NCBI RefSeq assembly: GCF_013167455.1
Contig: NZ_CP038328.1
Source of the DNA: Escherichia coli O157:H7
Lineage (GTDB): Bacteria > Pseudomonadota > Gammaproteobacteria > Enterobacterales > Enterobacteriaceae
Length of the DNA: 64,000 bases
Strand: one strand, 5' to 3'
Position numbers and translations under genes: made by a program. Numbering within the stretch: the first letter of the stretch is position 1; each line of letters begins with the position of its first letter. Shown here one piece after another: positions 20,840-25,763 of the stretch. A model generated the notes under the pieces. It was not told where the DNA came from and did not search any database. It saw only the letters and a program-made list of their open reading frames with translations.

Positions 20840-21907
20840 ATGGATAAGAGTAAGCGCCATCTGGCGTGGTGGGGTGTCGGGTTACTGGCGGTGGCTGCTA
20901 TCGTAGCGTGGTGGCTGTTGCGCCCGGCAGGTGTGCCGGAAGGCTTTGCCGTCAGCAATGGGCGCATTGAAGCGACGGAAGTGGATATCGCCAGCAAAAT
21001 TGCCGGGCGTATCGACACCATTCTGGTGAAAGAAGGCCAGTTTGTTCGCGAAGGCGAAGTGCTGGCGAAGATGGATACTCGCGTGTTGCAGGAGCAGCGA
21101 CTGGAAGCCATCGCGCAAATCAAAGAGGCACAAAGCGCCGTTGCCGCCGCGCAGGCTTTGCTGGAGCAACGACAAAGCGAAACTCGCGCCGCACAGTCGC
21201 TGGTTAATCAACGCCAGGCCGAACTGGACTCCGTTGCCAAACGTCATACGCGTTCCCGCTCGCTCGCCCAACGAGGGGCTATTTCTGCGCAACAGCTGGA
21301 TGACGATCGCGCCGCCGCTGAGAGCGCCCGAGCTGCGCTGGAATCAGCAAAAGCCCAGGTTTCGGCTTCTAAAGCCGCTATAGAAGCGGCACGCACCAAT
21401 ATCATTCAGGCGCAAACCCGCGTCGAAGCCGCACAAGCCACTGAACGGCGCATTGCCGCAGATATCGATGACAGCGAACTGAAAGCCCCGCGTGACGGAC
21501 GCGTGCAGTATCGGGTTGCCGAGCCAGGGGAAGTGCTGGCGGCAGGCGGTCGGGTGCTGAATATGGTCGATCTCAGCGACGTCTATATGACCTTCTTCCT
21601 GCCAACCGAACAGGCGGGCACGCTGAAACTTGGCGGTGAAGCCCGGCTGATCCTCGATGCCGCGCCAGATCTGCGTATTCCTGCAACCATCAGTTTTGTC
21701 GCCAGTGTCGCCCAGTTCACGCCAAAAACCGTCGAAACCAGCGATGAACGGCTGAAACTGATGTTCCGCGTCAAAGCGCGTATCCCACCGGAATTACTCC
21801 AGCAGCATCTGGAATATGTCAAAACGGGCTTGCCGGGCGTAGCGTGGGTGCGGGTGAATGAAGAACTTCCGTGGCCTGACGACCTCGTGGTGAGGTTGCC
21901 GCAATGA
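20840..21907 (+). CDS. yhiI: HlyD-family membrane fusion (periplasmic adaptor) protein
   Basis: 355 aa; N-terminal TM anchor, long Ala/Gln-rich coiled coil, C-terminal beta-barrel region; stop overlaps the rbbA start. Confidence 0.9.
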
Positions 21908-24639
21908 CGCATCTGGAACTGGTTCCCGTCCCGCCTGTCGCGCAACTGGCGGGCGTGAGCCAGCATTATGGAAAAACCGTTGCGCTGAACAATATCACAC
22001 TCGATATTCCGGCCCGCTGTATGGTCGGGCTGATTGGTCCGGATGGCGTCGGGAAGTCGAGTTTATTGTCATTGATTTCCGGTGCTCGTGTCATTGAGCA
22101 GGGCAATGTGATCGTGCTGGGCGGCGATATGCGCGACCCGAAGCATCGCCGCGACGTCTGCCCGCGCATCGCCTGGATGCCGCAGGGGCTGGGCAAAAAC
22201 CTCTACCACACCTTGTCGGTGTATGAAAACGTCGATTTTTTCGCTCGCCTGTTCGGTCACGACAAAGCGGAGCGGGAAGTGCGAATCAATGAGCTGCTGA
22301 CCAGCACCGGGTTAGCACCGTTTCGCGATCGTCCGGCAGGGAAACTCTCCGGCGGGATGAAGCAAAAACTGGGGCTGTGCTGTGCGTTAATCCACGACCC
22401 GGAACTGTTGATTCTTGATGAGCCTACGACGGGGGTTGACCCGCTCTCCCGCGCCCAGTTCTGGGATCTGATCGACAGTATTCGCCAGCGGCAGAGCAAT
22501 ATGAGCGTTCTGGTCGCCACGGCCTATATGGAAGAGGCGGAACGCTTCGACTGGTTGGTGGCGATGAATGCCGGAGAAGTGTTGGCAACTGGCAGCGCCG
22601 AAGAGCTGCGGCAGCAAACGCAAAGCGCCACGCTGGAAGAAGCATTTATAAATCTGTTACCGCAAGCGCAACGCCAGGCGCATCAGGCGGTAGTGATCCC
22701 ACCATATCAACCTGAAAACGCAGAGATTGCCATCGAAGCGCGCGATCTGACCATGCGTTTTGGTTCCTTCGTTGCCGTTGATCACGTCAATTTCCGCATT
22801 CCACGCGGGGAGATTTTTGGTTTTCTTGGTTCGAACGGCTGCGGTAAATCCACCACCATGAAAATGCTTACCGGATTGCTGCCCGCCAGCGAAGGTGAGG
22901 CGTGGCTGTTCGGGCAACCGGTTGATCCAAAAGATATCGATACTCGCCGTCGGGTGGGCTATATGTCGCAGGCGTTTTCGCTCTATAACGAGCTCACCGT
23001 GCGGCAAAACCTTGAGTTACATGCCCGTTTGTTTCACATCCCGGAAGCGGAAATTCCCGCAAGAGTGGCTGAAATGAGCGAGCGTTTTAAGCTCAACGAC
23101 GTTGAAGATGTTCTGCCGGAGTCATTGCCGCTCGGCATTCGCCAGCGGCTTTCGCTGGCGGTGGCGGTGATTCATCGCCCGGAAATGTTAATCCTCGATG
23201 AACCTACTTCTGGCGTCGATCCGGTGGCGAGGGATATGTTCTGGCAGTTGATGGTCGATCTCTCGCGCCAGGACAAAGTGACTATCTTCATCTCCACCCA
23301 CTTTATGAACGAAGCGGAACGCTGCGACCGTATCTCTCTGATGCACGCCGGAAAAGTGCTCGCCAGCGGTACACCGCAGGAACTGGTTGAGAAACGCGGA
23401 GCCGCCAGTCTGGAAGAGGCATTTATCGCCTATTTGCAGGAAGCGGCAGGACAGAGCAACGAAGCCGAAGCGCCTCCCGTGATACACGACACCACACACG
23501 CGCCGCGCCAGGGATTTAGCCTGCGCCGTCTGTTTAGCTACAGCCGCCGCGAAGCGCTGGAACTGCGACGCGATCCGGTACGTTCGACGCTGGCGCTGAT
23601 GGGAACAGTGATCCTGATGCTGATAATGGGTTACGGCATCAGTATGGATGTGGAAAACCTGCGCTTTGCGGTGCTTGACCGCGACCAGACCGTCAGTAGC
23701 CAGGCGTGGACGCTCAATCTCTCCGGTTCCCGTTACTTTATCGAACAGCCGCTGCTTACCAGTTATGACGAGCTTGATCGTCGGATGCGTGCGGGCGATA
23801 TCACGGTGGCAATTGAGATCCCGCCCAATTTCGGGCGCGATATCGCGCGTGGTACGCCTGTGGAACTCGGTGTCTGGATCGACGGTGCGATGCCGAGCCG
23901 CGCCGAAACTGTAAAAGGTTACGTGCAGGCCATGCACCAGAGCTGGCTACAGGATGTGGCGAGCCGACAATCCACACCCTCCAGCCAAAGCGGGCTGATG
24001 AATATTGAGACGCGTTATCGCTATAACCCGGACGTAAAAAGCCTGCCAGCGATTGTTCCGGCGGTGATCCCGCTTCTGCTGATGATGATCCCGTCAATGC
24101 TAAGCGCCCTTAGCGTGGTGCGGGAAAAAGAGCTAGGGTCGATTATCAACCTTTACGTGACCCCCACCACCCGTAGCGAATTTTTGCTTGGCAAACAGCT
24201 GCCGTACATCGCGCTGGGGATGCTGAACTTTTTCCTGCTCTGCGGCCTGTCGGTGTTTGTGTTTGGCGTACCGCATAAAGGCAGTTTCCTGACGCTCACC
24301 CTGGCGGCGCTGCTGTATATCATCATCGCCACCGGAATGGGGCTGCTGATCTCCACCTTTATGAAAAGCCAGATTGCCGCCATTTTCGGTACGGCGATTA
24401 TCACGTTGATCCCGGCGACACAGTTTTCCGGGATGATCGATCCGGTAGCTTCGCTGGAAGGGCCGGGACGTTGGATCGGCGAGGTTTACCCGACCAGTCA
24501 TTTTCTGACTATCGCCCGCGGGACGTTCTCGAAAGCGCTGGATCTGACTGATTTGTGGCAACTTTTTATCCCGTTGCTGATAGCCATACCGCTGGTGATG
24601 GGCTTAAGCATCCTGCTGCTGAAAAAACAGGAGGGATGA
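21904..24639 (+). CDS. rbbA: Ribosome-associated ATPase RbbA: tandem ABC ATPase domains fused to an ABC-2 permease domain
   Basis: 911 aa; two Walker A motifs ([18 protein letters not shown]), two LSGG signature motifs, C-terminal 6-TM permease. Confidence 0.9.
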
Positions 24640-25763
24640 TGCGCCATTTACGCAATATTTTTAATCTGGGTATCAAAGAGTTGCGCAGTCTACTCGGTGA
24701 TAAAGCGATGCTGACATTGATTGTCTTCTCGTTTACGGTGTCGGTGTATTCGTCAGCGACCGTCACGCCAGGATCGTTGAACCTGGCACCGATCGCCATT
24801 GCCGATATGGATCAATCGCAGTTATCGAACCGGATCGTTAACAGCTTCTATCGCCCGTGGTTTTTGCCACCGGAGATGATCACCGCCGATGAGATGGATG
24901 CCGGACTGGACGCCGGGCGTTATACCTTTGCGATAAATATTCCGCCTAATTTTCAGCGTGATGTCCTCGCCGGACGCCAGCCAGATATTCAGGTGAACGT
25001 CGATGCCACGCGCATGAGCCAGGCATTTACCGGCAATGGGTATATCCAGAATATTATCAACGGTGAAGTGAACAGCTTTGTCGCGCGCTACCGTGATAAC
25101 AGCGAACCGTTGGTATCGCTGGAAACCCGGATGCGCTTTAACCCGAACCTTGATCCCGCGTGGTTTGGCGGGGTGATGGCGATCATCAACAACATTACCA
25201 TGCTGGCGATTGTATTGACCGGATCGGCGCTGATCCGCGAGCGTGAACACGGCACGGTGGAACACTTACTGGTGATGCCGATAACGCCGTTTGAGATCAT
25301 GATGGCGAAGATCTGGTCGATGGGGTTGGTGGTGCTGGTGGTATCGGGATTATCACTGGTGCTGATGGTAAAAGGCGTGTTGGGCGTACCGATTGAAGGC
25401 TCGATCCCGCTGTTTATGCTGGGCGTGGCGCTTAGTCTGTTTGCCACCACGTCAATCGGCATTTTTATGGGGACAATAGCGCGTTCAATGCCGCAACTGG
25501 GGCTGCTGGTGATTCTGGTGCTGCTGCCGCTGCAAATGCTTTCCGGTGGTTCCACGCCGCGCGAAAGTATGCCGCAGATGGTGCAGGACATTATGCTGAT
25601 CATGCCGACGACACACTTTGTTAGCCTCGCGCAGGCCATTCTCTACCGTGGTGCCGGATTCGAAATCGTCTGGCCGCAGTTCCTGACGCTGATGGCAATT
25701 GGCGGCGCGTTTTTCACCATTGCGCTGCTGCGATTCAGGAAGACGATTGGGACAATGGCGTAA
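24636..25763 (+). CDS. yhhJ: ABC-2 family transporter permease
   Basis: ORF frame 24555..25763; start at ATG 24636 overlapping the rbbA stop (ATGA), giving 375 aa; polytopic membrane protein. Confidence 0.85.

Follow-up and report, generated by a model that had tools for sequence, protein, structure and literature searches.

Escherichia coli carries three adjoining genes, yhiI, rbbA and yhhJ, of which the second is currently labelled 'ribosome-associated ATPase/putative transporter RbbA' in the databases. We analyzed this locus in a 64,000-nucleotide stretch of the E. coli O157:H7 chromosome (NCBI RefSeq contig NZ_CP038328.1; hereafter the window, with all positions counted from its first nucleotide) and conclude, with a probability of about 0.72, that yhiY-yhiI-rbbA-yhhJ is one transcription unit for an adaptor-dependent ATP-binding cassette (ABC) exporter with the ABC-2 (type V) fold. 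An export machine is favoured because of the domain matches of the three proteins, the paralogy to YbhG and YbhF, the predicted folds, and the strict conservation of the module. The original prediction for this locus had proposed an adaptor, a fused double ATPase/permease, and a second permease, an architecture that is borne out by the Pfam and NCBIfam matches, the YbhG/YbhF paralogy, and the predicted folds; the export function that it had argued for is supported by the conservation of the module in 75/75 loci and by a gene of the OEP family of outer-membrane factors (OMFs) found beside 15 loci.

The yhiI-rbbA-yhhJ operon is a system already known and annotated in E. coli, and ABCISSE lists a 'YHIH' family as IM + ABC2-IM + MFP (PMC2821768), so that to a specialist the result is a sound, ordinary annotation and no surprise. 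The new details are the likely start of yhhJ, the yhiY leader, the fixed pattern of one degenerate and one consensus ATP site, a type V rather than a MacB fold, an EmrA-like adaptor, the conserved fused module with its junctions, the linkage to an OMF gene in 15 loci, and the weak state of the evidence that ties RbbA to ribosomes. The operon belongs to the core gene set of E. coli and is among the few remaining ABC exporters of this species without a known cargo, and a sequence-level case for the exporter build helps to stop the spread of the mis-annotation of RbbA.

Domains, folds, and ATP sites of RbbA and YhhJ

The three genes lie on the same strand (+), as the open reading frame (ORF) list and reads of the sequence confirmed. 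The first, yhiI (20840..21907), encodes a periplasmic adaptor (membrane fusion protein) of 355 aa. The product of rbbA (21904..24639, formerly yhiH) is a single polypeptide of 911 aa with two nucleotide-binding domains (NBDs) and a six-helix ABC-2 membrane domain, while yhhJ (24639..25763, with an alternative in-frame ATG at 24636) encodes a second ABC-2 permease of 374 aa with no ATPase domain. Within rbbA, NBD1 spans 21937..22653 (approximately residues 12-250), NBD2 spans 22729..23448 (approximately residues 276-515), and the membrane domain, placed by hydropathy, Pfam, and paralogy to YhhJ, spans 23521..24636, all on the plus strand.

RbbA matched the NCBIfam equivalog model for RbbA (NF033858) with 1593 bits over residues 12-910 (curated cut-off 1050). 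In Pfam it gave two ABC_tran matches followed by ABC2_membrane_3 (E = 4e-39), the latter being the only family matched by YhhJ (E = 6e-36). The two NBDs are 37% identical to each other, and YhhJ is a paralog of the RbbA membrane domain (28% identity, E = 4e-28) with the same topology by hydropathy, i.e. six hydrophobic segments each, with the first transmembrane (TM) helix (TM1, approximately residues 563-581 in RbbA) followed by a loop of ~140 aa and then by TM2-TM6. A REKELG motif directly after TM2 of RbbA was invariant in 76/76 orthologs. As RbbA provides both NBDs and one transmembrane domain (TMD), and YhhJ a paralogous TMD, these data support a full, pseudo-symmetric transporter that would consist of one RbbA and one YhhJ (2 NBDs and 2 TMDs). 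In such an assembly each of the two TMDs would bear a periplasmic domain of ~140 aa between TM1 and TM2.

The AlphaFold2 model of YhhJ (71 sequences; predicted local distance difference test, pLDDT, 83) found its best fold match in the insect transporter ABCH-9C (TM-score 0.58-0.60 over ~400 columns, including the domain between TM1 and TM2), followed by NosY, ABCA1/3/4/7, ABCG25, and KpsM, all of them type V exporters, with no MacB chain among the 50 fold matches listed. The modelled membrane domain of YhhJ has the type V fold. A sequence search of our PDB copy yielded no RbbA, no YhhJ, and no close relative of YhiI; the NBDs of RbbA were closest to those of ABCA transporters in the PDB and to DrrA/NodI among the family models.

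The motifs of the two NBDs differ. In NBD1 the Walker A, Q-loop, LSGGM signature, and Walker B motifs are canonical, and Tyr208 stands in place of the H-loop histidine; in NBD2 the Walker A and B motifs and the H-loop residue His466 are canonical, and the signature is degenerate, reading LPLG and not LSGG. This pattern is fixed in distinct orthologs taken from genome loci, where the NBD1 tyrosine and His466 were each present in 76/76 sequences and the residues of the NBD2 signature in 75/76 (P409), 75/76 (L410), and 76/76 (G411). Among 13 diverse fused homologs (32-58% identity) the H-loop histidine of NBD1 was absent in 12, and none had a canonical SGG signature in NBD2 (0/13). Because a head-to-tail NBD dimer joins the motifs crosswise, one degenerate and one consensus ATP site are predicted: the degenerate site is the putative pocket of NBD1, with tyrosine at the H-loop, facing the LPLG signature of NBD2, and the consensus site is the one that NBD2 Walker A/B and His466 are predicted to form with the LSGGM signature of NBD1. 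By analogy with other asymmetric ABC exporters, the consensus site would probably account for most of the hydrolysis, while the degenerate one would bind ATP in a structural role or regulate the cycle. The fixed asymmetry offers a direct mutational test.

The YhiI adaptor

YhiI matched the Pfam families HlyD_3, HlyD_D23, and Biotin_lipoyl_2 (a lipoyl-like domain) and passed the cut-off of the adaptor model TIGR01730 RND_mfp (118.5 bits, cut-off 94.9), while its score against TIGR01843, the model of the HlyD type, stayed below the threshold (52.9 bits, cut-off 208.65). With this score, and with membrane domains of the ABC-2 and not of the ABC_membrane (type IV) family, type I secretion of the HlyB/HlyD kind was ruled out; the domain content also ruled out reading the operon as an importer.

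The hydropathy of YhiI indicates a single N-terminal TM helix. In its AlphaFold2 model (63-sequence alignment, pLDDT 91) this helix (residues 2-26) is accompanied by a split lipoyl domain, a beta-barrel domain, and a long alpha-hairpin that consists of the helices 81-144 and 150-211. The hairpin helices are ~62-64 residues long, which at ~1.5 Å per residue gives a predicted length of ~95 Å. The best fold match in the PDB was EmrA of EmrAB-TolC (Foldseek E = 1.5e-21; 8ZAL/8ZAR), followed by MacA of MacAB-TolC and then by AcrA and MexA, all of which dock to an outer-membrane channel. The model supports YhiI as an EmrA/MacA-like periplasmic adaptor, which would be anchored in the inner membrane by its one TM helix and carry the ~95 Å hairpin into the periplasm.

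Conservation of the module and a possible outer-membrane partner

A word-indexed protein search with RbbA returned near-identical E. coli sequences only and was of no use for assessing diversity. HMMER searches of 1.84 billion cluster representatives recovered full-length fused relatives down to ~33% identity; the contigs of two of these carried the fused ABC gene together with a gene of adaptor size and one for a permease, and on that of a third the fused gene was followed by a permease gene. A scan for a TMD motif in one genome per species yielded at least 594 confirmed loci, of which the best 80 were analyzed and 75 were usable for junctions. These best 80 loci come from Escherichia, Citrobacter, Pseudocitrobacter, Morganella, Providencia, Proteus, and Moellerella, from many alpha-, beta-, gamma-, and delta-proteobacteria, and from one metagenome-assembled genome (MAG) of Gemmataceae. 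Wherever their flanks allow, the order yhiI-rbbA-yhhJ is kept (tblastn), and in 75/75 usable loci the module yhiI-rbbA (fused)-yhhJ was present with RbbA as a single ORF. Outside the enterics, the identity to the E. coli proteins was 46-66% for YhiI, 62-78% for the domains of RbbA, and 58-78% for YhhJ. Conservation within the family is strong, and its members occur widely among Proteobacteria.

A patchy distribution within Enterobacterales is not claimed. Salmonella and Klebsiella are absent from the best 80 of at least 594 loci, and such an absence is uninformative because this total is a lower bound and Salmonella papers name a yhiH gene. The system is tandemly duplicated in a Desulfuromonadales MAG, where a complete but divergent second module (L055:11394-16751; proteins 30-48% identical to those of E. 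coli) follows directly downstream of the first.

Clustering of the neighbouring ORFs revealed a lipoprotein gene of the OEP family (PF02321, E = 1e-46; product of ~490 aa, range ~480-550 aa) that adjoins the module in 15 of the 80 loci. In 14 of them (L023, L028, L032, L037, L038, L041, L044, L045, L048, L051, L061, L065, L070, and L074) this gene directly precedes yhiI on the same strand, and in L052 it lies downstream of the module, so that these organisms have a four-gene OMF-adaptor-ABC-permease cluster. No family besides the OMF gene recurs beyond close relatives in the 80 loci, and the gene context therefore gives no clue to the cargo. For E. coli we infer that TolC would be the outer-membrane partner. 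The fold relatives faintly suggest that the pump might take up an amphipathic or lipid-like cargo from the inner membrane or the periplasm.

The same data bear on a rather unlikely alternative, in which the three proteins form a membrane ABC machine but no trans-envelope efflux pump, with YhiI as a periplasmic partner that does not dock to TolC. Such a machine would act at the inner membrane by flipping or extracting a component that is lipid-linked or belongs to the envelope, or it would transmit mechanical work to the periplasm in the manner of MacB or LolCDE. The nearest folds to YhhJ handle lipids or glycolipids (ABCH-9C with ceramide, ABCA1/3/4/7, KpsM), and NosY exports no drug. The high conservation across classes (YhhJ 58-78% to E. 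coli) would fit an endogenous substrate better than xenobiotics, and an OMF gene is not beside the module in E. coli and in ~55 of the ~70 loci that have an upstream flank. However, OMF genes are often unlinked in E. coli, where TolC works with AcrAB, MacAB, and EmrAB, and the 15 loci with an adjoining OEP-family gene speak for a passage across the outer membrane. A long alpha-hairpin such as that of YhiI is moreover typical of adaptors that dock to an OMF, and its best matches, EmrA and MacA, come from solved complexes with TolC.

Gene junctions and probable translational coupling

At the yhiI/rbbA junction the sequence reads ATGA, i.e. a 4-nt overlap at 21904-21907, exactly as the original prediction had given it. 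At the second junction, GGAGGGATGATGCGC, it had claimed an overlap of 24636-24639; the two genes do abut or overlap either way, but the overlap is probably 1 nt and not 4 nt, as in-frame ATG codons are present at both 24636 and 24639. The shorter overlap (TGATG, in which the A of the TGA stop codon is shared with the ATG) is more likely because the start at 24639 (374 aa) is the one in the RefSeq annotations of O157 and of K-12, because an AGGAGG at 24629-24634 is followed by ATG 24639 after 4 nt and by ATG 24636 after 1 nt, and because the orthologs of YhhJ start with MR..NI..LG.

The tight spacing recurs in other genomes. Of the 75 homologous loci, 63 have an in-frame start of rbbA that overlaps the yhiI stop by 4 nt and 9 have one with a 1-nt overlap, and the distance between rbbA and yhhJ lies between -4 and +3 nt in 70/75. 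With this conservation, the tight junctions of the operon are not due to chance, and they would couple the translation of the three genes and help to balance the subunits.

Several E. coli database records (near positions 24555-24640 of the window) describe a 1272-1286-aa 'RbbA-YhhJ' fusion protein. Each of the three records that were read has its own frameshift close to the 3' end of rbbA, through which translation passes into the frame of yhhJ; that frame is open over the 81 nt preceding the yhhJ start. A natural Rosetta-stone fusion was rejected, as the frameshifts differ and nearly all records are one-off; the fusions are probably sequencing errors or rare mutations.

The yhiY leader and regulation

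Upstream of yhiI lies yhiY (20664..20777, +), a 37-codon upstream ORF (uORF) with the sequence MMTTLLPVFTKPSPLALNALRAGRICRFLLIPDGRIR that ends 62 nt before yhiI. It is annotated between yhiJ and yhiI in RefSeq for both O157 and K-12 (Pfam PF23514 YhiY, E = 6e-30) and had been overlooked in the original prediction, which took yhiL and yhiJ as the immediate upstream neighbours of the operon. The conserved 5' leader of the operon (20627..20839, +) was delimited by DNA alignments with Citrobacter and Pseudocitrobacter, and includes a block of ~65 nt, invariant in five aligned sequences, that spans the ribosome-binding site and the first codons (MMTTLLP) of yhiY.

In Escherichia, Citrobacter, and Pseudocitrobacter the stretch from yhiY to yhiI is conserved more as DNA than as peptide. 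In the Citrobacter yhiY a 23-nt indel puts the conserved 3' part into another frame, and the uORF keeps the start position and the approximate end (~60 nt before yhiI). The stop codon of yhiY falls within the 5' arm of a conserved hairpin (20771-20791), which shows a few compensatory changes. A long-range pairing of ATGCGTGT near 20632 with ACACGCGT near 20800 is possible. A conserved RNA structure in the leader is not claimed, given a folding z-score of 0.11 and a comparison that covers only three genera, and an Rfam scan of 20400-26000 returned no match.

A weakly supported candidate sigma-70 promoter (TAGACA-16-TACTAT with an extended TG; 20479..20506, +) was found ahead of the leader by a consensus scan; the regional count of promoter matches was not above that of shuffled sequence, and the site is a lead only. 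A published study reported that a yhiI fusion was expressed >2-fold higher in a rho R66S mutant (Adams et al., bioRxiv 10.1101/2020.07.18.207399), and yhiY-yhiI was listed among uORFs with an RNA 3' end <200 nt downstream (bioRxiv 10.1101/2020.07.18.207399). A uORF-linked Rho attenuation at yhiY is plausible but unproven, and Rho-dependent premature termination within the leader would probably keep the expression of the operon low.

Possible ribosome association and points against export

RbbA was named for a ribosome-linked ATPase activity, and according to a second alternative it is primarily a translation factor, a ribosome-bound ATPase that would promote the release of deacylated tRNA from the E site, with its partner proteins and membrane domain being incidental or serving as a tether. 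Its tandem NBDs are superficially similar to those of ABCF proteins, and truncated RbbA stimulated reconstituted translation for some non-standard amino acids (PMC12096078). In that study, published in Nucleic Acids Research in 2025, RbbA without its membrane domain gave a 1.3- to 2.1-fold gain with some substrates and inhibition with others, and the truncation had been chosen because of the instability of full-length RbbA and the difficulty of overexpressing and purifying it (PMC12096078). The in vitro effects are thus modest and concern a truncated fragment (PMC12096078), whereas full-length RbbA is located at the membrane: RbbA-mCherry was spread over the membrane, and RbbA-3xFLAG was recovered in inner-membrane fractions (PMC6788730). 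The main in vivo paper, published in 2011, which tied RbbA to ribosomes and to YhjD, was retracted in June 2025 over image concerns, and the label 'ribosome-associated ATPase' is left with old biochemistry on a truncated fragment and this retracted paper.

The protein itself also fails the definition of an ABCF factor. These are soluble and have a long linker between their NBDs, while RbbA has a C-terminal six-helix ABC2_membrane_3 domain, an inter-NBD linker of only ~25 aa, and no match to ABC_tran_Xtn (PF12848) at E <= 0.001. Its NBDs group with the ATPases of the DrrA, NodI, and ABCA exporters, and an NBD-NBD-TMD fusion flanked by adaptor and permease genes in 75/75 loci is hard to square with a soluble factor. 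Taken together, these results show that RbbA is built and conserved as a transporter subunit, and we regard a primary role in translation as quite improbable. A dual-purpose RbbA, i.e. a membrane-anchored exporter ATPase whose tandem NBDs would also engage the ribosomal E site, we hold to be very improbable; if true, it would couple the activity of a TolC-linked type V pump to local translation, e.g. of the leader peptide YhiY or of a cargo that is secreted or inserted into the membrane. In vitro, a truncated fragment appears to show binding of the cytoplasmic NBDs to ribosomes.

Several points weigh against the adaptor-dependent exporter that we prefer. The E. coli operon has no OMF gene, so that the use of TolC is an inferred one. 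No transport substrate or phenotype of yhiI-rbbA-yhhJ is established in the literature that was searched, no physical evidence of a YhiI-RbbA-YhhJ-TolC complex was found, and our PDB copy holds no solved structure of it. A lipid-like cargo is suggested by fold relatives only. The older biochemistry and the 2025 in vitro study of the fragment lacking its TMD report ribosome-linked activity of RbbA (PMC12096078). On the regulatory side, the E. coli yhiY leader folds no better than its shuffles (z = 0.11), and the published Rho effect concerns the yhiI fusion.

Genome occurrence and neighbouring genes

Positions 20500-26000 of the window are 100% identical to many O157 chromosomes, consistent with its source, E. 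coli O157:H7. At least 80% of this stretch was present in 5413/5426 complete E. coli genomes and was chromosomal in all of them.

The genes further upstream, yhiL (16980-18590) and yhiJ (18852-20474), both encode DUF4049 proteins, and the original prediction was right in calling them paralogs (36% identity). A functional link with the pump, which it had considered, is unlikely, because the yhiJ/yhiL island of 33-38% GC abuts an operon of 52-60% GC and because no match to DUF4049 was found in the 80 homologous loci, two of which, from Escherichia, have too little upstream flank. YhiL and YhiJ carry GDxxGDR...GNHE motifs, and YhiJ weakly matches the Calcineurin-like phosphoesterase family (E = 7.7e-4, below the cut-off), which suggests that the DUF4049 proteins may have a divergent metallophosphatase-like core. 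The yhiL gene is intact in the O157 window and a pseudogene in K-12.

Directly downstream of yhhJ in O157 lies a hicA/hicB toxin-antitoxin pair (25836-26467), whereas in K-12 this place is taken by rhsB and by yhhI, which encodes a putative transposase, so that the downstream junction of the operon differs between strains. A promoter-like site (25775-25802) precedes hicA, and no intrinsic terminator was found between yhhJ and hicA, with the results of both the terminator and the promoter scans not exceeding the shuffled expectation.

Comparison with known systems

The closest characterized system is YbhG-YbhFSR (cecR-ybhGFSR), a clear paralog of the operon. YhiI is 30% identical to YbhG, and NBD1 and NBD2 of RbbA show 40-41% identity each to the corresponding domains of YbhF, which likewise has a tyrosine at the H-loop of NBD1 and LPLG at the signature of NBD2. 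As in the yhiI operon, both permeases belong to the ABC2_membrane_3 family, the adaptor gene precedes those of the transporter, and neighbouring genes of ybhGFSR overlap or are at most ~10 nt apart. The two systems differ in that the YbhF ATPase forms a polypeptide of its own, with ~100 aa between its NBDs, whereas RbbA is fused to one permease and has the short linker, and in that the ybhGFSR operon has a TetR-type regulator, CecR, where yhiI-rbbA-yhhJ is preceded by the yhiY leader. For YbhFSR, published work describes drug and ion phenotypes (PMC7190983). A review groups YbhFSR in the MacB/FtsX family and calls ybhF an adaptor gene (PMC8277102, section 5.7). The adaptor of YbhFSR is YbhG and not the product of ybhF, and the grouping is unsupported at the fold level for the RbbA/YhhJ paralog, for which the predicted models point to ABC-2/type V instead.

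MacAB-TolC (type VII) resembles the proposed exporter in being an ABC transporter with large periplasmic domains and a hexameric adaptor that has an N-terminal TM helix, and MacA ranks high among the folds that match YhiI. MacB, however, is an NBD-FtsX protein with four TM helices and a single NBD, while RbbA and YhhJ have six TM helices each and ABC2_membrane_3 domains, and no FtsX domain was matched by Pfam in RbbA. EmrA shares with YhiI the N-terminal TM anchor, the long hairpin, the lipoyl domain, and the beta-barrel domain; its partner EmrB differs, being an antiporter of the major facilitator superfamily that is driven by the proton-motive force and not an ABC ATPase. ABCH-9C and human ABCA1/3/4/7 are, like YhhJ, type V proteins with an extracytoplasmic domain between TM1 and TM2, but they are eukaryotic lipid transporters with no adaptor or outer-membrane channel, and the identity is only 9-20%. 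The ABCF factors of E. coli (EttA, Uup, YbiT, and YheS), finally, have in common with RbbA the tandem ABC ATPase domains in one polypeptide, and differ from it as soluble proteins whose long inter-NBD linker contacts the P-site tRNA, where RbbA has a membrane domain and a short linker.

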